From: Acidimicrobiia bacterium
GTDB lineage: Bacteria > Actinomycetota > Acidimicrobiia > Spongiisociales > JAENVV01
Assembly (NCBI GenBank): GCA_041577335.1
Contig: JBFGJH010000007.1
Location: forward strand, 54,858 to 74,857
Direction of reading: 5' to 3'
DNA length: 20,000 bases
Shown here: piece after piece, positions 832 through 14,992 of the stretch
Layout of the letters: each line of letters starts with the position of its first letter
Position numbering within the stretch: position 1 is the stretch's first letter
The notes under the pieces: generated by a model
Seen by the model: the letters and a program-made list of their open reading frames with translations, nothing else
Database searches by the model: none
Told to the model about the DNA's origin: nothing
Translations under genes and position numbers: made by a program

Positions 832-3570
832 ATGACCAATGACGCCTTCGGCGCTCGGGCAACCCTCTCAACTCCGCTCGGCGATCGTACGATCTATCGA
901 CTCGATGCGCTTCGAGAAATCGGCGACATCGACACGATTCCCTACTCCATCAAGGTGCTGCTCGAGTCGGTGCTCAGGAACTACGACGGCCACATCGTTC
1001 AAGACGAAGATGTCCGAGCGCTGGCGTCGTACAACGCCTCCAAGGTGGGCGAAACCGAAATCCCTTTCACGCCTGGCCGAGTCGTGCTCCAGGATTTCAC
1101 AGGTGTTCCGGCCGTCGTCGATCTCGCTGCCATGCGGTCTGCGGTCGTCAGAATGACGGGCGACACCGCCAACGCTGCCAAAGTGAATCCTCAGGTGCAA
1201 TGTGACCTGGTGATCGATCACTCGGTTCAGGTCGATGCCTTCAACTCGGGCATGGCACTTCGCATCAACGCCCAAATGGAGTTCGAGCGAAATCGCGAAC
1301 GGTACGAGTTCCTCAAGTGGGGCCAGAGCGCTTTCTCCAACTTCAGAGTGGTGCCGCCGGCAACCGGCATCGTCCACCAGGTGAACTTGGAGTACCTCGC
1401 CAAGGTGGTCTGGGACAACGGAACCGAGCTCTATCCCGACAGCCTGGTCGGGACGGACTCACACACGACGATGATCAATGGAATCGGAGTCGTCGGTTGG
1501 GGCGTCGGCGGCATCGAAGCCGAAGCAGTGATGGTGGGTCAGCCCATCTACATGCTCATTCCTGAGGTTGTCGGCTTCAAGCTCACGGGCCAGCTCGCCG
1601 ATGGCGCTACCGCCACGGACATGGTCTTGGCCGTCACCCAGCTGCTGCGTGAGCACGGCGTCGTCGGGAAGTTCGTCGAGTTCCATGGCCCCGGCCTCGC
1701 CGACATGCCGCTCGCCAACCGGGCAACCATCGCCAACATGGCCCCCGAATATGGCGCAACGGTGGGCTTCTTTCCCGTGGATGAGCAGACGTTGACCTAC
1801 TTGCGCTTGACCGGCCGCGATGATGCGCTCGTCGACACCGTCGAGCAGTACTACAAAGAGCAGGGCCTCTGGCGCGACGACGCTCGCCAGATCACATATT
1901 CATCGAATCTCGAGCTCGACCTCTCAACGGTGCTCCCAGCGCTGGCCGGGCCGAAACGCCCCCAAGATCGGATCCTTCTCTCGGGCATGAAGGCCCAATG
2001 GGATCAAGACCTGGTCAACACGTTCCACAAGCCCAGTCCGGCCGCGTCTGGGACGATCCAGGAGATGGCAGACGAGGGTGGCCCGGCTCTGAACGGCGTC
2101 GACAGCGGCCCCCATCGGGTGGCCGTTGCCTACGAGGGGGCCAAGTTCGAGCTCGCCCATGGCGCTGTCGCCATCGCCGCCATCACCTCCTGCACGAACA
2201 CCTCAAACCCTTCGGTGATGGTGGGCGCCGGTCTGGTCGCCAGAAAAGCACGCGAGAAGGGTCTCAACCGGAAACCGTGGGTGAAGACATCTCTGGCTCC
2301 CGGATCGAAGGTCGTGACCGAATATCTCGATGCGGCCGACCTGACCAAGGACCTCGAGGGTGTCGGCTTCTTCAACGTCGGGTACGGATGCACGACGTGC
2401 ATCGGCAACTCCGGCCCTCTACCGGAACCGATCGCCACCGCTGTGGAAGCCAACGACCTCGTGGTGGCATCGGTCCTGTCCGGCAACCGGAACTTCGAAG
2501 GCCGGATCTCTCCACTTGTCAAAGCCAACTACCTGGCGTCACCCCCACTCGTGGTCGCGTACGCCCTGGCCGGAACAGTCGACATCGATCTCACCACCGA
2601 GCCGCTGGGCGTCGGAAGCGACGGCAGTCCTGTCTACCTCAGGGACATCTGGCCGAGCCAGTCGGAGATCGATGAGGTCGTCCGCGTCGCGGTCAATCGC
2701 GAGCAGTTCGTGGAGCAATACAGCAACGTGTTCGAAGGGCCCGAGGAATGGCAAGCGATCGAGACCACAGGGGACGTTCTCTACAACTGGAACCCGGCAT
2801 CCACGTATGTTCAGGAGCCTCCCTTCTTCGAGGGCCTCACCGCAGAGCCGGGCACGATTGGGCCCATCGAAGGCGCCCGCGTGCTCGTCAAGGTTGGCGG
2901 ATCGGTCACCACCGATCACATCTCACCTGCCGGATCGATAGCCGAGACGTCCCCTGCCGGGGAATACCTGCTTGCCCAGGGGGTCGAGAAGAGACTGTTC
3001 AACTCGTATGGTTCCCGACGCGGCAACGATCGAGTTATGACGCGTGGGACATTCGCGAATGTCCGGGTACGCAACCATTTGGCTCCGAACACCGAAGGCG
3101 GATGGACGACCGATTTCACCGACGGACAAGTCAAAACGATCTACGACGCCAGCCTTTCCTACCAGGCGGCGGGCATCCCGCTGATCGTGCTCGCCGGCAG
3201 CGACTACGGGATGGGGTCATCCCGCGATTGGGCTGCCAAAGGCACGTACCTGCTCGGAGCGCGCGCCGTGATCGCCGAATCGTACGAGCGGATCCATCGG
3301 TCGAATCTCATCGGAATGGGTGTTCTGCCTCTGCAATACGCCGGCGGCGCAACCGCTGAGTCGCTCGGTCTCGACGGGACCGAAACATTCGACATCCGGG
3401 TCGACGACGGCCTGTTGCCTCGTCAGGACGTCGTGGTACGGGCCACTCGTGACGACGGTTCGGTGGTGGAATTCACGGCCACATGTCGGATCGATACACC
3501 CGTCGAGGTGGACTACTACCGCAACGGCGGGATTCTCCACACCGTATTGAAGTCGATGGCGTCATCCTGA
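832..3570 (+). CDS. acnA: Aconitate hydratase A
   Basis: ~910 aa; [70 protein letters not shown] at 822-825 favours ATG 832 over 820. Confidence 0.97.
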
Positions 3571-5140: not shown

Positions 5141-5733
5141 CGCTGCTCCCGGAACGGGTCGCCGTACATGTGGTAGCCATTTCGTTCCCAGAACCCGGCG
5201 ACATCATGATCGAGGAAACGGAAGCTCCGAACCCACTTCACCGACTTCCAGAAGTAGAGATGCGGGACAACGAGCCGAAGTGGCCAGCCGTGCTCCAGTT
5301 CGAGAGGTTCGCCGTCGAACGACCATGCCAAGAGGTTCTCGGGGCGCAGGAAGTCATCGAGCGGGAGGTTGGCCGTGTAGCCGTGCTCCGCTTGCACGAG
5401 CACATGGCTGGCTTCGTCATTGAGTGCCACGCCGCTCATGAAGTCGGTGATTCGAACACCCTGCCACCGGGTGTCCAGCTTCGACCATTTGGTGACGCAA
5501 TGGATGTCGACAACCTGGTCGGTGGACGGCATTGCCGTGATCTCATCGAGGGTCCACGATTGCTCTGTCGCGACAAGGCCCATGATCTTGAAATCCCATG
5601 TTGCCAGGTCGATGTCGGGCACCACTCCTGCATGCAGCACCGGAAACCGGTCGGTGACGTATTGGCCCGGAGGTACCCGAGACGGGTCGACGCCATCTCC
5701 TCCTGGCGGCTGTTTGCCTCCTCCGAACCTCAT
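5125..5733 (-). CDS. Sulfite oxidase-like molybdopterin-dependent oxidoreductase
   Basis: RVPPGQY, FPVLH, DIHCVTKWS, EHGWPLRLVVPHLYFWKSVKW, GFWERNGYH..GDP; start MRFGGG at 5733 with TACACT 7 nt upstream. Confidence 0.9.
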   Translation of the reverse strand: MRFGGGKQPPGGDGVDPSRVPPGQYVTDRFPVLHAGVVPDIDLATWDFKIMGLVATEQSWTLDEITAMPSTDQVVDIHCVTKWSKLDTRWQGVRITDFMSGVALNDEASHVLVQAEHGYTANLPLDDFLRPENLLAWSFDGEPLELEHGWPLRLVVPHLYFWKSVKWVRSFRFLDHDVAGFWERNGYHMYGDPFREQRYWGS

Positions 5734-5740
5734 GCGGGCG

Positions 5741-5767
5741 AGTGTAACGACGCGCACCCGGTAACAT
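5741..5767. promoter_or_regulatory. Back-to-back -10 elements for two divergent, probably leaderless genes
   Basis: TACACT (minus, 5741-5746) is 7 nt before ATG 5733; TAACAT (plus, 5762-5767) is 6 nt before ATG 5774; no SD sequence. Confidence 0.6.
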
Positions 5768-5773
5768 CCTGAA

Positions 5774-6352
5774 ATGGATTCGGACAGCTCCGATGGTCCA
5801 CTCCCCCGAAGAACGGGCCGACTCACGGCGATCTTCATAGGTGTGATCGCTATTGCCCTGATCGCCGCCGCGGTGTGGCCTGGCCAGGACTCGACCCCGC
5901 TCGCCGAGGCGGGCGCCCTCGGCGTCGTCGGTAACGAAGATCCCGCCCCGGACTTCACGGTTCGCCTTTTCGACGGCTCCACCTTCACGCTTTCGGAGCA
6001 CCTGGTGACGGACGGCAGGCCAGTTGTCCTGAATTTCTGGGCTTCGTGGTGCGCTCCGTGTCGAGCCGAAATGCCCGACTTCGACGCGGTGGCAGCCGAA
6101 AAGCCGGGCCTCTTGGTTCTAGGGGTGGCCGTACAGGACTCCGAGGCCAACGCTCGCGAGTTTGCTGAAGAAGTAGGAGTTTCGTACCCGCTGGGCATTG
6201 ATAGCGACGAAACGGTGGCCGCGGCATATCGCTACCTGGGATTGCCTGCGACGTGGCTCATCTCTACGGACGGAACGATCGCCCGCCAGATCAACGGGCA
6301 GGTCGATGCAGATGCGCTGCGAGAGATGGTGGCAGGCAGTTTCGGCTTCTGA
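5774..6352 (+). CDS. Membrane-anchored TlpA/ResA-family thiol-disulfide oxidoreductase
   Basis: N-terminal TM, APDFT, VVLNFWASWCAPCRAEMP, GLPAT cis-Pro motif. Confidence 0.92.
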   Translation: MDSDSSDGPLPRRTGRLTAIFIGVIAIALIAAAVWPGQDSTPLAEAGALGVVGNEDPAPDFTVRLFDGSTFTLSEHLVTDGRPVVLNFWASWCAPCRAEMPDFDAVAAEKPGLLVLGVAVQDSEANAREFAEEVGVSYPLGIDSDETVAAAYRYLGLPATWLISTDGTIARQINGQVDADALREMVAGSFGF

Positions 6353-6495: not shown

Positions 6496-6645
6496 CTACT
6501 GAATCACTCCACCGTTGTCGATGAGATCGCCCGCCCGCTCGAACGCGAGAGCGAGTGCCATGAGCGCCAACACCAGCAGGACCACCATGACTCCTGCCCG
6601 CACGGGCGGCGGACCGGGAAGACCGTTGTATATCCGTTTCAGCAT
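6496..6645 (-). CDS. 49-aa single-TM membrane protein coupled to the sortase gene (not in ORF track)
   Basis: MLKRIYNGLPGPPPVRAGVMVVLLVLALMALALAFERAGDLIDNGGVIQ; its ATG overlaps the sortase TGA (TGATG); the LPGP + TM pattern resembles small proteins found after actinobacterial class E sortases. Confidence 0.75.
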   Translation of the reverse strand: MLKRIYNGLPGPPPVRAGVMVVLLVLALMALALAFERAGDLIDNGGVIQ

Positions 6646-7373
6646 CAGCCGACTCCGACGCTATCAGAGCCGTCGGCCGTGTCAGACGCTCCGTAGAGAT
6701 ATTCGAAATTCGGACCGTCGACGAGCTCGGCGAACACCACGAGGCGCTGGCGAGCCGATCGCCTGGGATGACAAGTCGTGAGCGTGAGCCACGAACCTTC
6801 CCGGGGCTCGGTCACCCACACGTCGGTGGGCTCGACAATCAAGACTTCCCGAACCGTGTAGATGTGGGCGCCGGTCGCCGTCTGGACCGTGATCTCGTCG
6901 CCGTCTTCGAGTAGATCGAGATCAGCAAACGGAGCTTCATATGTGGTGCGATGACCGCTGATCACGGCGTTGCCGGGCTGGCCGGGCAGCGGGGTCCACG
7001 GCATGTGCCCCGGGCCCTTCTTCAGGTCGTCTCGGCGCACGCCCTCGAAAACAATGTGGTCGACCTCCGCCTTTTCGCTGATGATGCGCGCGAATGGATT
7101 GCCCTCATCGACCGCGAACTCCGGGTAGAGCACCGGGGCGGTTTCGTCGGATCCTTGATCGGGAGCGGTCCCCACAACGGCTGGAGCCACCGGGAGCCCG
7201 GCTTCCTGAATCTGATCGATCGTGTTGTCAAAGATGCTCTCGAGCTGAGACTCGGCGTCGGCCTGCGCCTGCGCTGTGATGAACCCCGTTCCCCACAGCT
7301 GATAGGCGAGAAACGCCAGGATGAGTCCCCCGGACCAGATCATGGCCCACCCGAGAATGCGGACGACCTTCAC
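6645..7373 (-). CDS. Class E sortase
   Basis: N-terminal TM (AFLAYQLWGTG), LKKGPGH, PGQPGNAVISGHRTTY, LTLTTCHP...RL catalytic His/Cys/Arg; AGAGAGG RBS before GTG 7373. Confidence 0.92.
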   Translation of the reverse strand: MKVVRILGWAMIWSGGLILAFLAYQLWGTGFITAQAQADAESQLESIFDNTIDQIQEAGLPVAPAVVGTAPDQGSDETAPVLYPEFAVDEGNPFARIISEKAEVDHIVFEGVRRDDLKKGPGHMPWTPLPGQPGNAVISGHRTTYEAPFADLDLLEDGDEITVQTATGAHIYTVREVLIVEPTDVWVTEPREGSWLTLTTCHPRRSARQRLVVFAELVDGPNFEYLYGASDTADGSDSVGVG

Positions 7374-7422
7374 CCACACACCTCTCTTTCGAGTGGTCAG
7401 CGTATCAGTGTCTCGGCGCTTC

Positions 7423-8184
7423 TCAACGTCCCTTGAACTCGGGTGTCCGCTTCCCGACAAAGGCAGCCAGCCCCTCGCGAGCATCCTCGGTCATCGCCAC
7501 CGAGGTGAGACCCACAGCGAGATGGTCGAGAGCCGCATCGAAGGCCAGATCTTGGACTGCATAGAAGCTGTGTTTGCCCATGGCCAGCACAGCCCGACTC
7601 TTGCTCATGAGCTCAGCAACGAGCTCGTCGACCGCGGCGTCGAGCTCTTCCGGAGCGACCACTCGGGACAGGGCACCGATCCGCAAGGCCTCGGCGGCCC
7701 CGATCCGCCGACCGCTCATGACCAAGTCGAGGGCCACCTTGGGCGGAAGGCTCCGCTGAATCACTGTGGAGATCATCATCGGGAACAGGCCGACCGTCAC
7801 CTCGGGCGCTCCAAACGATGCCATGTCGACGCCGATTGCCATATCGCACGCCAGCATCAACCCGAAGCCGCCGGCTAGCGCATGTCCGTTGACGCGGGCC
7901 ACAACCGGCTGATCGCAGCGCCGCATCAATCGAAACAGCTCAGCAAGTCGGCTCCGTTCTCGGTGAGTGGCAAGCGGCTCATCGAAAAATCCACCGCTGA
8001 GGTCCCCGCCTGCGCAAAACGCCTTGTCGCCTGCCCCGGTGATGATTACAACCCGGATCTGGTCTGGCATCGTGTTGAACCCACTGATCAAGCCGGCAAC
8101 GACATCGTCGGTCAGCGGGTTGCGGCGATCAGGGTCGTCGATGGTGAATGTGAGCCGTCCCGCAGAAACTTCGGTTCGGAGCAT
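7423..8184 (-). CDS. Enoyl-CoA hydratase/isomerase (crotonase) family protein
   Basis: RRNPL, AFCAGGDL, ARVNGHALAGGFGL, FGAPEVTVGLFP, DAREGLAAFVGKRTPEFKGR; AGGAG RBS. Confidence 0.92.
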   Translation of the reverse strand: MLRTEVSAGRLTFTIDDPDRRNPLTDDVVAGLISGFNTMPDQIRVVIITGAGDKAFCAGGDLSGGFFDEPLATHRERSRLAELFRLMRRCDQPVVARVNGHALAGGFGLMLACDMAIGVDMASFGAPEVTVGLFPMMISTVIQRSLPPKVALDLVMSGRRIGAAEALRIGALSRVVAPEELDAAVDELVAELMSKSRAVLAMGKHSFYAVQDLAFDAALDHLAVGLTSVAMTEDAREGLAAFVGKRTPEFKGR

Positions 8185-8251: not shown

Positions 8252-8839
8252 ATGCTGTGGCTCCTCCTCGTCCTATTCATAGCGATCTTCATTGCCGTGC
8301 TGCGTGGTGGCCGGTTGGGCAACCTGGCGGAGATCGAACTGAAGCTGTGGTACCTGTTGGTGCTTGGCTTCGTCATGCAGGGCGTCACCGAATTCTTCCC
8401 AGATGATGCGTCCTGGTCACGGCCAGCTGGCGTGTCTTTGGTGCTGCTGTCCTATCTGCCGATCCTCGCCACGATTGCGGCCAACCGCGCCAAGCCGGGG
8501 ATGTGGCTGGCCGGAATCGGGATTCTGATGAACTTCACCGTCATCGCTTCCAACGGTGGCATGCCGGTGATGCAGGAAGCTGCCCAGGTGGCGGCGTCCA
8601 CCGACGCAATCGTCCTCGTCGCCGACCACAAGCACGTGGTGCTCGATGCGGCAACCCGCCTTCCCTTCCTGGCTGATGTGATTCCCCTTCGTTTTCTCGG
8701 GGAGGGCAACGTGTTGTCGCTGGGCGATGTGTTCCTGGCGGTCGGTCTCGGCCGGTTCCTCGAGGCTGAGCTCAGGCGTCCGGTCCGTTGGTTCAAACAC
8801 AGGGCGGCATCGGAATCAGGGAGCGCAGAACGCGGCTAG
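8252..8839 (+). CDS. DUF5317-family membrane protein
   Basis: RGGRLGNL N-terminus, G..MN..VIASNGGMPV, KH, TRLPFLADVIP, LSLGDV; recognised from memory of the family; extended -10 TGgTACGGT upstream. Confidence 0.8.
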   Translation: MLWLLLVLFIAIFIAVLRGGRLGNLAEIELKLWYLLVLGFVMQGVTEFFPDDASWSRPAGVSLVLLSYLPILATIAANRAKPGMWLAGIGILMNFTVIASNGGMPVMQEAAQVAASTDAIVLVADHKHVVLDAATRLPFLADVIPLRFLGEGNVLSLGDVFLAVGLGRFLEAELRRPVRWFKHRAASESGSAERG

Positions 8840-8849
8840 CGAGCAGGCT

Positions 8850-10079
8850 TCACCGAACTGCTGCTGTGTTGACAAGCCCCAAGTCGACGACCGTGCGCAC
8901 CGCCTCGACGACATCAGGGTCGTAGTCATAGGCAGCTCCCCGGTGCATCACCTCGAGGGCTTCGAGTGGTGAGAAACCCATCTCGTTGATTGCGTGGTCG
9001 AACGCGCTCGATGCCCTGATGACCTTCGAAGCAAGAGGAACGTTGGGATCCTTCTGCTCTCCAGGCCGACGATACGGTTGATGTTGGAGGCGAACGAGCG
9101 TGGCCACGTTGCTGAGGTAGCGGGCCTCGGAGATGATCTCGCTCCCCCAGCGCGCAATGTCATCTTCGCTGAACCCTGCTTTGAGAATGTTCGGCTCATT
9201 GAGGGTTATGCGGCCGATGTCATGCATGCGAGAGGCGTATTCGAGGTCCTGGATCTCGTGGGGGGTCATTCCGAGCTCTTGCCCGATCGCGACCGCCATG
9301 GCGGCAGTCCTATCCGAATGGCCGTCGGGCGATAGGCCGGCAACCTCGGGGATCCGCGACAGGGCTCGGATCGTCTGGTCGTAGGTGGATTGTGCCTCGG
9401 CGGTCCGCTGGAACGCTATGTAAGCGAATGCGAATGGAGGAAGAGCGACGAGGAGCGTCCACCAGCGAAGAGCGCTCCACGAGAATCCAGCCAGAGCGCC
9501 CACGATGTACAGGCTGAACGAGACAGGCCAGTCATCGAATGCCAGGATGGCCAGGTAACTGAGAGAGAGCCGGTCGCGGCCATACGAGGTCAACGCCCAT
9601 GCGCCCATCTCGAACACGAACCAGACGACCGCGGCGAGCGCAAACGCCACCAGCGGGCCCGACTCCCATCCTTGCATCGAGGCAGACAACCCGTCGAAGG
9701 TGAAGGCGTACAAGCCGGCACCGAGCGAATTGCGGATCGCCGCGCTGTCGATGGCGTGGCCTTCCCTGCCTCCAATTCGGGCGAGCATCCATCCGCCGAG
9801 ATAGCCGGCTGAGTACACGCAGAAGACGGCGGCGAGATCGGCTCCTCCGCCGCCGCCGACGACAACAGGCACTGCGACGGCCACGGCAAATGCGAAGGAC
9901 AGGCGATTGCCACTCTTGGCGGGTACCTCAAACAAGCTAGCGATCGCGAGGATCGTGGCCCACACGAGTATTCCACCGATTCCGTAGTCGGTCACGCCGA
10001 TCGACATGAAGAAGATCGAGACCATGCCTATGGCCCATAGGACCGGCTGAAGCTGATCGCGTGCAGAGATCTCAGCCAT
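8850..10079 (-). CDS. Membrane protein with a degenerate HD-GYP domain
   Basis: ~7-8 TM N-terminus; GHSDR and MHDIGR are retained, but HH..GYP is replaced by QHQPYRRPG and ADxFD by SSAFD; ends YDPDVVEA. Confidence 0.85.
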   Translation of the reverse strand: MAEISARDQLQPVLWAIGMVSIFFMSIGVTDYGIGGILVWATILAIASLFEVPAKSGNRLSFAFAVAVAVPVVVGGGGGADLAAVFCVYSAGYLGGWMLARIGGREGHAIDSAAIRNSLGAGLYAFTFDGLSASMQGWESGPLVAFALAAVVWFVFEMGAWALTSYGRDRLSLSYLAILAFDDWPVSFSLYIVGALAGFSWSALRWWTLLVALPPFAFAYIAFQRTAEAQSTYDQTIRALSRIPEVAGLSPDGHSDRTAAMAVAIGQELGMTPHEIQDLEYASRMHDIGRITLNEPNILKAGFSEDDIARWGSEIISEARYLSNVATLVRLQHQPYRRPGEQKDPNVPLASKVIRASSAFDHAINEMGFSPLEALEVMHRGAAYDYDPDVVEAVRTVVDLGLVNTAAVR

Positions 10080-11421
10080 GATGAGCCTCTATTCCCGCCC
10101 GTCCTTCGGCAACCATTCTCGCCAGGACATCCGAGTCCATCGACGGCGACCCATATCGCTCACCGGTGCGGGCAAGTCCACGTACCAACGCGTCGACGAC
10201 CTCGGGGTCGAACTGCGTCCCCGCATGGGAGCGCAGCTCTTGGAGTGCGTATTCTTGCGTCAGAGCCATCCGGTACGACCGGGTCGACGTCATTGCGTCG
10301 AACGAATCGGCGACGGCCAGGATGCAGGCCTCGGGCGACGGCGGCTCGCCGGCGGTGTGACCGGTGCCGCCATACCCCGTTCCGTCGTAACGTGAATGAT
10401 GGCCCGAGGCGATCTGAACCATCGGTCGGAGGAACTCCACCTCGGCGAGGATGTCCTCGACCATATGGGCGTGACGCTGCAGTTCTTCGTACTCGCCGTC
10501 ATCGAGCCGCCCGCGCTTGCGAATGAGTTCCCCGGGCACAGCCAGCTTGCCGACGTCGTGAATGAGGGCGGCCCAACGAAGCCTTTCCAGCGCGGTTCCT
10601 CGGTAACTGAGCTCCTCCCCGATGAGTTGCGCGAAATAGGCGACCCTCTCGGTATGGCCCCGGGTGTATAAGTCTTTGGCTTCCAACGCCTTGATGAAGC
10701 CGCGCAAGGTGCCTTCATGGGCATCGCGCAGTTTGCTATAGCTGCCTATCCCGACGTATCCGACGACGAGGAGGCCGAAGACCAACGGCAACACATTCGG
10801 CTCGACGTGATAGGTCGCTCCAACCAGCCCACCCATGAATCCCAGCAGAATCGAAGATGGAACCATCGACCCCATGCGAGACCACGGGCGGATATTCCTT
10901 TGCTGATAGATGACTCTGACAGCCAGGTTCACGCTGCCCAGGTTGACTGCGTTGTAGACCAAGCTCGCCAATGCCGCTCCCGAGGCAGCCAGGCCAAAAT
11001 CGCCGACCGTCCAGTTGCTCCATTCGTTGTTGGCCGGCAGAAACGGCTCGAGCACGAAGGCAGCAACCACGGCCGAGGTGACCAATTGACCGAGGTTCAC
11101 GAGTGGCACAACCACTCGCCTTTCCCTGAAATCAACTGGGCGGAACGGGGCGAGGAGCGCAATGACGCCGACTCCCAGCGCAGCTGTTTCGGGGCCGAAC
11201 GCCACCGCGGCCGCCAGTATGGCCATGACGCTGGGGCTGCTGATGAGGTGGTCGTTGATCTCGAACGATCGCCACTCGAGAAAGACCACCACGAGGGCGA
11301 ATGGCAGCCACGGCATCAACGGGGGGAACGAGTGTGTCAGGGCAGCAATGAGCAAGACCCCTAGACCTACCCCGGTGTAAAGGGCTGCGAGCAACACTCG
11401 TGCCCTTGTCTGCGCTTTCAA
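10072..11421 (-). CDS. Membrane-bound HD-GYP cyclic dinucleotide phosphodiesterase
   Basis: Multi-TM sensor region; KDLYTRGHTERV, IHDVGK, HHSRYDGTGYG, VADSFDAMTSTRSYR, GTQFDP; TTG start with GGAGGG RBS; overlaps the next gene by 8 nt. Confidence 0.9.
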   Translation of the reverse strand: MKAQTRARVLLAALYTGVGLGVLLIAALTHSFPPLMPWLPFALVVVFLEWRSFEINDHLISSPSVMAILAAAVAFGPETAALGVGVIALLAPFRPVDFRERRVVVPLVNLGQLVTSAVVAAFVLEPFLPANNEWSNWTVGDFGLAASGAALASLVYNAVNLGSVNLAVRVIYQQRNIRPWSRMGSMVPSSILLGFMGGLVGATYHVEPNVLPLVFGLLVVGYVGIGSYSKLRDAHEGTLRGFIKALEAKDLYTRGHTERVAYFAQLIGEELSYRGTALERLRWAALIHDVGKLAVPGELIRKRGRLDDGEYEELQRHAHMVEDILAEVEFLRPMVQIASGHHSRYDGTGYGGTGHTAGEPPSPEACILAVADSFDAMTSTRSYRMALTQEYALQELRSHAGTQFDPEVVDALVRGLARTGERYGSPSMDSDVLARMVAEGRAGIEAHHG

Positions 11422-11466
11422 TTTACTTGTCCCTCCGGAGGAAGAAGGGCTCAGACCGATTCTCGA

Positions 11467-11556
11467 TCAACCAACCTTGAAGCTTGCGCCGCCCGCAAAA
11501 AGCGCGGCAGCCAGGCTTGCTGTCACCGCCATGAGGCGGATCAGGCGTGTACGCAT
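11467..11556 (-). CDS. 29-aa signal-peptide-like small protein, putative signalling peptide precursor (not in ORF track)
   Basis: MRTRLIRLMAVTASLAAALFAGGASFKVG*; GGGTGAT anti-SD-complementary site 6 nt upstream; stop is 45 nt before the HD-GYP start on the same strand. Confidence 0.75.
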   Translation of the reverse strand: MRTRLIRLMAVTASLAAALFAGGASFKVG

Positions 11557-11623
11557 ATACGTATCACCCAGTTCTATGTGAATTGACCCGGTGTCTGTGC
11601 CCCGGGCCGGTTCGATTCGCTCC

Positions 11624-11804
11624 GCTGGGGATGGTGCGTGATTGGACTTTCGGCCTGAGCCCGTTCTCCTTCTCTCGTGAGAGAGACCTCAGAACGCGAC
11701 AGGCGCGCTCAGGACTCCCTCCCAACCGTACAACTACGGTGTCCGATCCAGAGCTCCCAGCCGCCCATTCTGCACGGACTCGGTATCAGCGCGATACCGG
11801 TGCA
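11624..11804. ncRNA. Candidate structured RNA (multi-stem), probably the leader of the peptide/HD-GYP operon; family unassigned
   Basis: Nested complementary segments: 11624-29/11756-61, 11640-47/11741-48, 11654-60/11707-13, 11662-67/11691-96, 11671-76/11681-86, 11725-30/11735-40, 11781-87/11793-99, 11771-75/11800-04. Confidence 0.55.
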
Positions 11805-11835
11805 TGTGCAAAGATAGCGACAACTAGGTACCGAC

Positions 11836-11863
11836 TCAACCACTCGACGTGGTTTCGCGATCA
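11836..11863 (+). promoter_or_regulatory. Possible sigma28-like promoter overlapped by a palindromic operator
   Basis: TCAAC-N15-CGCGATCA, with inverted repeat AACCAC-tcgac-GTGGTT at 11838-11854. Confidence 0.35.
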
Positions 11864-11891
11864 CCCAACCCAAGCTCAGAAGGGACTACAT

Positions 11892-12518
11892 TTGAGCCAG
11901 ATGAAGTACTCAGACCTGGAAGAGACGTTGTGTCGACTCACCACTGTCGACGCGGTGCGAGTGATCGGCGACAACGGTGCGATCTCTGAGGTCCACGTGC
12001 TCGCCTCACCGGGCAAGGTGCCGAAGCAGGTCGTCCGCGACGTGCAGTCTTTGGCGATGGCATCGTTCGGCATCTCGATCGACCGCCGGGTGGTGTCGGT
12101 CGTTCAGATCGAGAACGAGGAGCTCCTGCGCTCCGATCGTCCCGCTGTCACCGAGATCACCGAGACTCCCGACGGATCTCGTAGCAAGGTGAGCGTCTCT
12201 CTGACCTGGAAGAACGAACTGTTCGTCGGTGAGGCCGTCGGGCCGAGCGGCCCGACGAGTCGCGTGCGCCTGGTTGGTGAAGCGACCCTGGCTGCTCTGG
12301 AGCGATCGATCAGCGACGACACAGCATTCGCCCTGGCGTCGCTCGAATTGCCCCGTGTCGGGAGCCGAGATGTGGCAGTCGCCCAGATCGTGATGGTCTC
12401 GGGTGGCGAGGAGCGATTCCTGGTTGGGTGTGCCCTGGCGGGCGGGGATCCCGCCCAGGCGGCGGTGCGCAGCGTTCTCGACGCCGTCAACCGGGTTGTG
12501 CCGCAGCTGAAGAGATAG
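11892..12518 (+). CDS. Hypothetical protein with a C-terminal region resembling the LeuA/CimA regulatory (dimerisation) domain
   Basis: N-domain EVHVLASPGKVPKQVVRDVQS..IDRRVVSVVQ; C-domain ends LVGCA..GD..QAAVRSVLDAVNR; AGAAGGGA RBS before TTG 11892 (alternative ATG 11901). Confidence 0.75.
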   Translation: MSQMKYSDLEETLCRLTTVDAVRVIGDNGAISEVHVLASPGKVPKQVVRDVQSLAMASFGISIDRRVVSVVQIENEELLRSDRPAVTEITETPDGSRSKVSVSLTWKNELFVGEAVGPSGPTSRVRLVGEATLAALERSISDDTAFALASLELPRVGSRDVAVAQIVMVSGGEERFLVGCALAGGDPAQAAVRSVLDAVNRVVPQLKR

Positions 12519-14230: not shown

Positions 14231-14992
14231 ATGCGTTTCAATCGGTTCGGCGCGCTCCTCGCGTGGCTGGCCATGGTTTCCTTTGCAATAGCGGGTTTCG
14301 CCGCGTTCTCGGCTACGAGCCCGGCTGACGTGGCGTCGAGCCCTGGGGAGGCCGGGGCGAATGCTGCAGACCCGGTCACGACCGTGACGCCGACCGCGCT
14401 CGGCAACGCAGCCGGCCGAGTCGCAGCCATGGCGCTCGCCCCAGGTGACAGCACCTCGACTCCGGACGCTTTTCGCCCTGCCTTGGCTCAGAAAGATGCC
14501 CTCACCAATGCGGTCGCCATGGTCGAAGTGACCACGACCACTCAAGCCCCCACCACCACGGCGGCCCCGCCGACGACCGAGGCCCCGCCGACCACGGAAG
14601 CACCCGCCACGACTGAGCCATCCGTGGAGACTCCGCCTACGACGGAGGCGCCGCCCGTGACCGAGCCACCCGTGGAGACTTCGTACATACCACCGGGAAC
14701 CGAGCCGTGGGTCGGGCTCGTCGAGGCGAGCTTCGCTTCCGGCGATGTCGGTCAAGCGCTCATGGTCATATGGTGCGAGAGCAAGGGAGACCCTTCCGCC
14801 ACCAACGGATCGTCCGGGGCAGCCGGTCTGTTCCAGCACCTCCCCAAATACTGGGCCGAACGCTCGGCGGCTGCCGGCTGGGAAGGCGCAGACATCTACG
14901 ACCCGGCCGCCAACATCGCCGTTGCTGCATGGCTCGTGTACGAGGGTGGCGGTTGGAGCCATTGGGGACCATCGGCGGGGTGCTGGGGCTAG
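14231..14992 (+). CDS. Secreted lytic transglycosylase (SLT/lysozyme-like) with a Thr/Pro-rich linker
   Basis: Signal/TM, TTEAPP repeats, CESKGDP (catalytic Glu), GAAGLFQH, IYDPAANIAVAAWL, GWSHW. Confidence 0.85.
   Translation: MRFNRFGALLAWLAMVSFAIAGFAAFSATSPADVASSPGEAGANAADPVTTVTPTALGNAAGRVAAMALAPGDSTSTPDAFRPALAQKDALTNAVAMVEVTTTTQAPTTTAAPPTTEAPPTTEAPATTEPSVETPPTTEAPPVTEPPVETSYIPPGTEPWVGLVEASFASGDVGQALMVIWCESKGDPSATNGSSGAAGLFQHLPKYWAERSAAAGWEGADIYDPAANIAVAAWLVYEGGGWSHWGPSAGCWG
14530..14685 (+). repeat. Degenerate tandem repeat encoding (TTEAPP)-like units
   Basis: TTTTQAPTTTAAPPTTEAPPTTEAPATTEPSVETPPTTEAPPVTEPPVET. Confidence 0.8.

Follow-up and report, generated by a model that had tools for sequence, protein, structure and literature searches.

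The window analysed here, a 20,000-nucleotide stretch of contig JBFGJH010000007.1 (positions 54,858 to 74,857 of the forward strand; assembly GCA_041577335.1, Acidimicrobiia bacterium), carries between its positions 8252 and 12518 a gene for a DUF5317 membrane protein, a small open reading frame (ORF) for a 29-residue peptide, two genes for membrane proteins of the HD-GYP type and a divergent gene. This set of genes, together with an RNA leader in front of the peptide, is a candidate membrane signalling module. Its features, in window coordinates, are as follows.

8252-8839, + strand: DUF5317 membrane protein, 195 residues (Pfam PF17248, E 1.5e-30)
8850-10079, - strand: hdgB-like gene, multi-pass membrane domain and degenerate HD-GYP domain, 409 residues (HD_5, E 5.4e-7)
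10072-11421, - strand: hdgA-like gene, MASE9-type membrane domain and largely intact HD-GYP domain, 449 residues, TTG start (HD_5, E 7.9e-32)
11467-11556, - strand: small ORF, 29-residue peptide MRTRLIRLMAVTASLAAALFAGGASFKVG (ORF list, coding signature and profile specificity)
11553-11796, - strand: structured RNA leader at the 5' end of the transcript for the peptide, hdgA and hdgB (covariance model and alignment)
11553-11645, - strand: 3' domain of the leader (match to model R3, E 3.3e-7)
about 11646-11796, - strand: 5' domain of the leader (alignment only)
11547-12518, + strand: divergent ORF, with a conserved part of 205 residues from the ATG at 11901 (11901-12518)

A preliminary description of this DNA had listed the same five genes, and all of them were found at the positions it gave; the gap of 10 nucleotides between the DUF5317 stop codon and the stop codon of the converging 409-residue gene was likewise borne out. 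The two HD genes overlap by 8 nucleotides, with the start of the 409-residue gene lying over the stop of the 449-residue gene, and the TTG start of the latter lies 45 nucleotides past the stop codon of the small ORF. The host genome contains 3 GGDEF and 5 HD_5 matches, which makes signalling through cyclic di-GMP (c-di-GMP) plausible in this bacterium.

The neighbourhood of DUF5317 was surveyed in other genomes, and conserved linkage to the peptide and to membrane signalling genes was observed, in keeping with the association that the preliminary description had proposed. DUF5317 was present in 37 of 41 related genomes, a tally that includes the unpublished genomes G025 and G036, which were kept out of all locus-level claims; unpublished genomes were also avoided in choosing loci within the taxonomic order. 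In 20 such loci, the HdgB-like gene lay next to DUF5317 in 19, the HdgA-like gene was present in 18 and the divergent gene in 14, and four of the six loci without the divergent gene stop at a contig edge before it could be reached. Over 80 Acidimicrobiia loci, the HdgB-like gene adjoined DUF5317 in 74, and one further locus was too short to judge.

The linkage extends beyond Acidimicrobiia. Of 301 genomes across the phylum, 121 carry DUF5317 (a count that includes the unpublished G157, G184, G057, G086, G210, G126, G274, G262 and G041, which were again kept out of the locus-level claims). Twenty loci of other lineages in this phylum were selected with DUF5317 as the only seed; in 16 of them a membrane signalling gene lay directly beside it, and in 7 the neighbour matched MASE9. 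Across the phylum, these signalling neighbours were HD-GYP genes in pairs or singly, histidine kinases and GGDEF-EAL proteins. A profile of the peptide matched at E 0.01 or better in 6 of the 14 phylum loci that had not been used to build it, with a histidine kinase as the neighbour in five of the six and a GGDEF-EAL gene in the sixth; in two loci, the peptide gene was on the strand opposite to that of the adjacent kinase. The flanking housekeeping genes varied by lineage (for example, SecA or UvrA/UvrB) while the module stayed, so plain synteny does not explain the linkage. At two loci of other lineages (L166 and L168), the divergent layout of the window was seen between a PdtaS-type histidine kinase gene and a BldD-like regulator gene; BldD is described in part of a report on Streptomyces as a c-di-GMP-binding regulator (PMC6205966). 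DUF5317 also occurs in Thermus thermophilus and Thermotoga maritima among 14 control genomes, in which presence alone was scored, and MASE9 was matched in T. thermophilus, T. maritima and Sulfolobus acidocaldarius, over the cut-off in two of the three.

A metagenome scan whose only seeds were 30 diverse relatives of the divergent protein yielded 80 loci, mostly on short contigs. An HD gene adjoined the seed in 49 of them, with the divergent arrangement of the window in 29 and a co-directional arrangement in 20, the latter in the order divergent-gene homologue, peptide, HD gene, (second HD gene), DUF5317. The peptide profile matched between the divergent-gene homologue and the HD gene in 35 of the 49, and the G+C content of loci with the gene set ranged from 0.34 to 0.74. 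Peptide and DUF5317 were concordant in 27 of the 30 loci that could be judged: both occurred in 18, where DUF5317 lay immediately past the HD genes in 16 and elsewhere in the locus in 2, and both were absent in 9. The remaining loci comprised two with DUF5317 and no peptide and one with the peptide and no DUF5317, in which the contig left only 748 nucleotides of room. Because the arrangement recurs in dozens of genomes, chance cannot explain it, and since the gene set recurs in two orders and over this range of G+C content, sequence comparison supports the conclusion that the five genes are functionally linked and are not mere neighbours. The same comparison supports joint gain and loss of the peptide and DUF5317. 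Among the scanned loci, nine (L206, L211, L219, L223-L226, L236 and L246) carried HD-GYP and divergent genes with neither peptide nor DUF5317, and the gap in front of the divergent gene measured about 0.5-1.5 kb; L223 has a first HD protein (HdgA type) with the canonical HHE and GYP, and a PilT-like ATPase ORF was read downstream from its translation.

The peptide MRTRLIRLMAVTASLAAALFAGGASFKVG consists of a basic N-terminus, an Ala/Leu-rich helix, a G-G-A motif and a short basic tail. That this small ORF is a genuine gene, as had been proposed, was confirmed by several signatures. In 34 distinct 29-codon copies, the ratio of nonsynonymous to synonymous change (pN/pS) was 0.43 in frame as compared with 1.03 and 1.61 in the shifted frames, and variability peaked at third codon positions. 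The length was exactly 29 codons in 37 of 39 copies. When the profile was run against the host genome, a single one of 43,146 small ORFs matched, namely that of the window (E 1e-11), and the next best reached only 0.97. Judged by these signatures, the 29-codon ORF is a real gene under purifying selection. The same kind of peptide was encoded in 13 of 15 aligned intergenic regions and in 38 of 45 further Acidimicrobiia loci (34 satisfied a strict rule, and 4 more were recognised by eye), and homologues were located upstream of hdgA-type genes in other lineages. No match was found for the peptide in Pfam at E 0.01 or better, and NCBIfam had none for either the peptide or DUF5317.

An alignment of 87 distinct peptides showed that conservation extends into the helix, where an R (R or K in 83), an S (65), an L (68) and two A residues (64 and 61) stand out; the motif there reads S-L-A-A-L, with each residue kept in 61 to 68 peptides. 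Next come G in 72 peptides, then G or S, then Ala in 85, and the tail after G-[GS]-A contains 2-7 residues, usually [KR] and then I, W or V. In seven loci (L051, L052, L074, L084, L108, L114 and L117) and also in L021 and L036, variants of 25-28 codons with a polar middle were observed, mostly ending in [KR]-[IV]-G; these variants are not well accounted for by any explanation offered here. Two loci carried duplicated copies: L156 has tandem peptide genes (5731-5820 and 6114-6203) upstream of one sensor gene, and L160 has identical copies (3192-3269 and 3403-3480) flanking a run of N, which may be an assembly effect.

The two HD proteins had been described as one intact and one degenerate member, and this distinction held on closer comparison, with the qualification that the first keeps most rather than all of the motifs. 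The canonical motifs of HD-GYP domains are HHE and GYP. In 17 aligned hdgA-like C-terminal domains, the 449-residue protein and its relatives keep H..HD.GK, HH, DG.GY and D..DA...RSYR, and the clade of the window protein reads HHS or HHA and GYG at the canonical sites. The HD_5 match of the 409-residue protein is weak (30 bits against a cut-off of 27.2), and in an alignment of 19 homologues this protein keeps HD, lacks the DGxGYP block and has a single His left of HHE. The motif set of an HD-GYP phosphodiesterase is thus incomplete in it, and its domain is degenerate, as reported for HdgB. The 449-residue HdgA-like protein is probably a c-di-GMP phosphodiesterase. MASE9 (PF20972) was matched by 8 of 18 full-length aligned hdgA-like homologues (best E 1.3e-8), and the MASE9-matching homologues from other lineages align to the window protein from about residue 40; nothing in the whole host genome matched MASE9 at E 0.1 or better.

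The pair has the layout of an hdgA/hdgB operon, being adjacent and co-directional with an intact HD-GYP gene followed by a degenerate one and with both products predicted in the membrane, a match of architecture to the published description rather than to Streptomyces sequences. It differs in that HHS and GYG of the window protein replace the canonical HHE and GYP. According to the sections of two reports that deal with this pair in Streptomyces venezuelae, hdgA (vnz24090) encodes a 6TM (six-transmembrane-segment) HD-GYP protein and hdgB (vnz24095) a 6TM protein with a degenerate HD-GYP domain lacking GYP; the two genes probably form one operon, are poorly expressed and give products that are both found in the membrane fraction (PMC6205966, PMC13232838). 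The input signal of HdgA/HdgB is stated there not to be known (PMC6205966). MASE9 was named, in the portion of a preprint describing it, on the N-terminal domain of this same class of HdgA-type proteins, and intramembrane ligand binding was proposed (bioRxiv 10.1101/2021.11.05.467447). The sections describing HdgA/HdgB in the published accounts mention no micropeptide, DUF5317, divergent 205-residue gene or leader RNA, and in these respects the window locus is different.

The DUF5317 gene product matched PF17248 at 106.7 bits (gathering cut-off 25) over model positions 1-149 of 151. A 20-sequence alignment revealed the invariant polar motifs N-R, NGGMPV-like, K-H, D-V-I-P and S-L-G-D, with two invariant Asp residues, one of them within S-L-G-D. 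The AlphaFold2 model was mostly helical, with five long helices and a mean predicted local distance difference test score (pLDDT) of 72; around the two invariant Asp it was only 55-69. It had been suggested that DUF5317 is the protease that matures the peptide, and this assignment is not supported. A Pfam scan at E 0.01 or better returned PF17248 only and no protease family; Foldseek found nothing in the PDB at E 0.001 or better (best E 1.8); VIA-align returned generic helical matches only (best Z 8.3); a sequence-profile search of the PDB produced one chance match (E 0.32) and no solved relative; and an Atlas search returned DUF5317 clusters only. In a comparison with intramembrane aspartyl proteases of the GxGD type, the two invariant Asp were present, and the fold reached no better than E 1.8 and Z 8.3, with a low-confidence model in that region. 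Among 13 longer homologues, 12 were fusions to major facilitator superfamily (MFS) transporters of the 'secretion effector' type, and no fusion to HD-GYP or GGDEF was seen, a negative that is weak evidence because scoring was limited to the 8,000 candidates with the most shared words. At locus L154 (2989-5580, - strand), a DUF5317-MFS fusion with C-terminal HEAT repeats diverges from a peptide gene and a MASE9 histidine kinase.

The conserved 205-residue part of the divergent ORF encodes a cytoplasmic protein whose AlphaFold2 model had a pLDDT of 87. Together with Foldseek, the model indicated an alpha/beta unit at the N-terminus and, over the C-terminal two-thirds, a domain resembling the regulatory domain of LeuA and citramalate synthase, which binds leucine or isoleucine. 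Residues of about 80-200 matched the regulatory domains of LeuA and LiCMS (Foldseek E 7e-6, probability 1.0; TM-score 0.57 against the isolated domain 3f6h). The predicted fold of this region resembles that of PF08502 (PDB 1sr9, 3fig and 3f6h), whereas the divergent protein differs from these enzymes in standing alone without the catalytic TIM barrel and in having the extra N-terminal unit. By sequence, the window protein had no Pfam match at E 1 or better and no PDB relative at E 1 or better; weak PF08502 matches were obtained for 8 of 19 homologues (best E 1.7e-4). A library clustered at 50% identity contains 3,875 representatives of the family (E 0.001 or better), clusters that look like it occur most often in Bacillota and Actinomycetota, and 'hypothetical protein' is the only name that any source gives among 120 listed homologues. 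In other lineages of the phylum, homologues of the gene were found only at HD-GYP loci (5 of 5 matches), three of them co-directional and upstream of hdgA. The host genome contains a second, partial match to the profile (contig C3:100285-100659, + strand; 159-residue frame, E 3.2e-27), which covers only the LeuA-regulatory-like part (profile positions 78-203).

In front of the peptide lies the leader, in which an AGCGRAGCG-type stretch about 60-70 nucleotides before the peptide start was invariant in 47 of 47 aligned sequences. In the 3' domain, a long helix pairs an upstream segment with the Shine-Dalgarno region of the peptide and encloses this stretch together with a hairpin. The structure was drawn by hand on a clade of eight sequences, and covariance models, iterated once, aligned the rest. 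Over 41 sequences, 83.9% of cells paired, as compared with 56.9% after shuffling and 29-40% when the partners were slid, percentages that are somewhat inflated because the alignments were fitted to the drawn structure; two-sided changes occurred in 10 of 10 pairs of the Shine-Dalgarno helix and 7 of 7 pairs of the inner hairpin. When 100 sources were searched with the covariance models, 40 matches at E 0.1 or better lay on site, that of the window among them, and one lay off site, having been carried over from the seed. The 5' domain (model R1) comprises a hairpin with a UUGACA loop and a strongly covarying hairpin in which 6 of 7 pairs changed on both sides; R1 matched 19 on-site loci and had no match in the window. 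Folding of single sequences from the window was unremarkable (z +0.42, -0.76 and -1.96). The structured leader named in the preliminary description was not convincing from folding of the window itself (z -0.76 and -1.96) and was confirmed by the covariation. RNAalifold found 0 pairs on a plain MAFFT alignment of the 47 leaders because variable loops broke the alignment.

Leader matches were confined to loci of the divergent type, in Acidimicrobiia and in three high-G+C metagenome loci; the model was unmatched in seven loci from other lineages of the phylum and in most of the co-directional metagenome loci searched. Rfam 15 gave 0 matches at gathering scores over the whole window, and a permissive scan of 11400-11950 gave one chance-level match (E 9.5). 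The element resembles riboswitches and leaders that sequester the Shine-Dalgarno sequence in having a long covarying helix on the ribosome-binding site that encloses an invariant unpaired stretch, and differs from them in lying outside the Rfam 15 families and in being found only in divergent-type loci. Contigs of relatives from three RNA libraries, 90-95% alike and short, span the peptide ORF and the leader; they show presence only, do not include hdgA or the divergent gene, and one has a loose end at 11466. Downstream of the peptide, the Shine-Dalgarno sequence GGAGGG of the 449-residue gene forms the 3' arm of a small hairpin directly after the peptide stop (11412-11472, - strand), which folds no better than shuffled sequence (z +0.42) and could couple translation of hdgA to that of the peptide. 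A possible three-segment switch, in which an upstream copy of the Shine-Dalgarno side competes for the anti-Shine-Dalgarno segment, was seen by eye in one clade.

We consider that there is an even chance that the window holds one copy of a widespread and undescribed actinobacterial membrane signalling module in which the peptide acts as a resident membrane subunit with DUF5317 and the sensor domain. The sensory core would consist of three membrane parts, namely a single-helix micropeptide of 24-29 residues, DUF5317 and a multi-pass domain of the MASE9 type. In the window, this sensor domain would sit on the HdgA-like HD-GYP protein as the enzymatic output, and the degenerate HdgB-like paralogue, translationally coupled to it, may serve as a regulatory partner. 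The peptide is proposed to insert with its N-terminus inside and to remain in the membrane, where its conserved face of small residues may pack on DUF5317, on the sensor domain or on both, and may set or relay the state of the sensor. The 205-residue protein, with its fold like that of an amino-acid-binding regulatory domain, might add a cytoplasmic input or act downstream. The long helix of the leader would sequester the ribosome-binding site of the peptide and thereby control whether the peptide, and in consequence hdgA-hdgB, are expressed. A resident membrane peptide is favoured because residues inside the helix are conserved across lineages and the tail is very short. The preliminary description had called the peptide secreted-type; the conservation in the helix and at the G-[GS]-A motif, and the tail of 2-7 residues, suit a micropeptide that stays in the membrane no less well than a cleaved pheromone.

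MgrB/PhoQ, SafA/PhoQ and AcrZ/AcrB are examples in which small membrane proteins modulate sensor kinases or transporters. The window peptide is like them in having a few dozen residues and one hydrophobic helix and in being encoded near, or co-regulated with, a polytopic partner; it differs in having a second dedicated membrane protein, DUF5317, and sensors of three output types, and the likeness is one of description only. The output proposed earlier, c-di-GMP turnover, agrees with the HD-GYP-type enzyme of the window and the GGDEF genes of its genome and does not extend to the module as a whole. Since the peptide and DUF5317 also adjoin histidine kinases and GGDEF-EAL proteins, c-di-GMP is, on the evidence of gene neighbourhoods, not its defining output.

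Several observations weigh against this reading. The compared genomes are related, and the co-occurrence counts overstate independence and show a pattern rather than a probability. Five of the 80 Acidimicrobiia loci (L085, L087, L099, L104 and L106) have DUF5317 and no other part of the module; the block of peptide, HD pair and divergent gene is missing as a unit, a gamma-glutamyltranspeptidase gene lies within 0.7 kb, and DUF5317 can thus persist without its usual partners. In one such genome (G039, 78% complete), no match to the divergent gene was found anywhere. The 449-residue protein of the window has no Pfam MASE9 match at E 0.05 or better, and its HHS and GYG leave enzymatic activity not assured. 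Deletion of hdgA or hdgB in S. venezuelae gave no phenotype on standard medium, according to the sections of the two reports on these mutants (PMC6205966, PMC13232838). The peptide itself resembles a signal peptide, with a G-x-A that fits a signal-peptidase site, so that it may be cleaved and released. Its hydrophobic stretch is lost in 7 of 45 Acidimicrobiia loci, and in most of these the ending [KR]-[IV]-G is retained, a pattern that would be strange if the peptide served purely as a membrane anchor.

The last two points lead to an autoinducer system of the Agr type, in which the AgrD peptide is handled by the membrane peptidase AgrB and sensed by the polytopic receptor kinase AgrC. By analogy, the small ORF would encode a precursor with a signal or leader segment, DUF5317 would process or export it, and the released C-terminal peptide of 2-7 residues would be sensed from outside by the MASE9-type domains, with c-di-GMP turnover as the output here and phosphorylation in the kinase-linked versions. 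The gene logic is the same, as a short peptide, a multi-pass protein of about 190 residues and a polytopic receptor recur with interchangeable outputs, and the peptide and DUF5317 co-occur. The basic N-terminus, the Ala-rich core and the near-invariant G-[GS]-A fit the -3/-1 positions of signal peptidase (Ala in 85 of 87), with [KR]-[IVW] following, and lineages that lack the hydrophobic core retain the C-terminal [KR]-[IV]-G. The MFS fusions of DUF5317 (12 of 13 longer homologues) and its two invariant Asp, one in S-L-G-D, also suit a role in export or processing. However, DUF5317 matches PF17248 only, with no protease or AgrB family among its Pfam matches and no fold above background, which we take as inconclusive; family-level features of AgrB and AgrD were not found, and the peptide is half the length of AgrD. 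A signal peptide that is cut off and discarded would not usually show such sequence-specific conservation in its hydrophobic segment, and in some members only 2-3 residues would be left as the mature product. Pfam annotation of the loci revealed neither a cognate response regulator nor a receptor of the RRNPP type, and the outputs include HD-GYP and GGDEF-EAL. We regard this explanation as possible yet doubtful. A tentative extension, which we think somewhat improbable, is that the peptide, DUF5317 and MASE9 form an Agr-analogous cassette of Actinomycetota, and possibly of Bacillota, in which a released C-terminal oligopeptide is the MASE9 ligand. If this were true, DUF5317 would represent a new kind of membrane protein for processing or export, and the cassette would be wired to c-di-GMP hydrolysis, synthesis or a phosphorelay by its output domain.

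The small ORF could instead act only in cis, its translation opening a downstream structure and controlling hdgA-hdgB while the peptide itself had no function. Its position 45 nucleotides upstream of hdgA, the placing of the hdgA Shine-Dalgarno sequence in a small hairpin directly after the ORF, the sequestering of the ORF's own ribosome-binding site by the leader helix, the nearly fixed length and the variant lineages that hold the ends of the ORF while its middle changes would all fit such a leader ORF. This is nevertheless unlikely, as purifying selection acts at the amino-acid level along the whole ORF and the same peptide family is kept in lineages of very different nucleotide composition; the leader model matched 0 of 7 phylum loci from other lineages, the peptide is opposite in strand to the adjacent kinase in two loci, and its presence follows that of DUF5317, a protein, and not that of one given downstream gene. 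Synteny without shared function, in which DUF5317 and the divergent gene merely neighbour an hdgA/hdgB operon within a lineage, appears very improbable. The whole Acidimicrobiia region is indeed syntenic, including unrelated genes for enoyl-CoA hydratase, a sortase-like protein and gamma-glutamyltranspeptidase, and five loci have DUF5317 without the rest of the module; yet the flanking metabolic genes change (SecA, UvrA/B) while DUF5317, the peptide and a membrane sensor persist and even reorient. The reading of the peptide as a membrane subunit that works with DUF5317 and the sensor is the one we prefer.

The preliminary description knew of no characterised system with this architecture. The HD-GYP pair is not new in itself, as it matches the published hdgA/hdgB layout. 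No paper on DUF5317 or PF17248 was found in the full-text literature, and a link of DUF5317 to MASE9/HdgA systems was not found in print, with subscription journals and supplements lying outside the search. HdgA/HdgB and MASE9 are orphan sensors without a known signal, and the partners found with them give experimental handles on them: a dedicated micropeptide, DUF5317 as a dedicated membrane protein, a putative ligand-binding protein of the cytoplasm and, in one class of loci, a regulatory RNA. The locus also offers a first functional context for DUF5317, for a 'hypothetical' family of about 3,900 representatives, for an unannotated micropeptide family and for an RNA motif absent from Rfam. 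That the same core serves kinases and GGDEF-EAL proteins would make it a general sensory device rather than part of one enzyme.

Promoter and terminator scans of the window gave no signal above shuffled sequence. Around the module, three further ORFs were noted. The ORF at 5774-6352 (+ strand) encodes a thioredoxin-like protein with a WCAPC motif, and that at 14231-14992 (+ strand) a secreted-looking protein with a Thr/Pro-rich linker, both read by eye from their translations. The ORF at 6645-7484 (- strand) is sortase-like by the same reading; its position is syntenic in relatives, and it shares about 39% identity with an ORF of locus L162 that Pfam confirms as a sortase.

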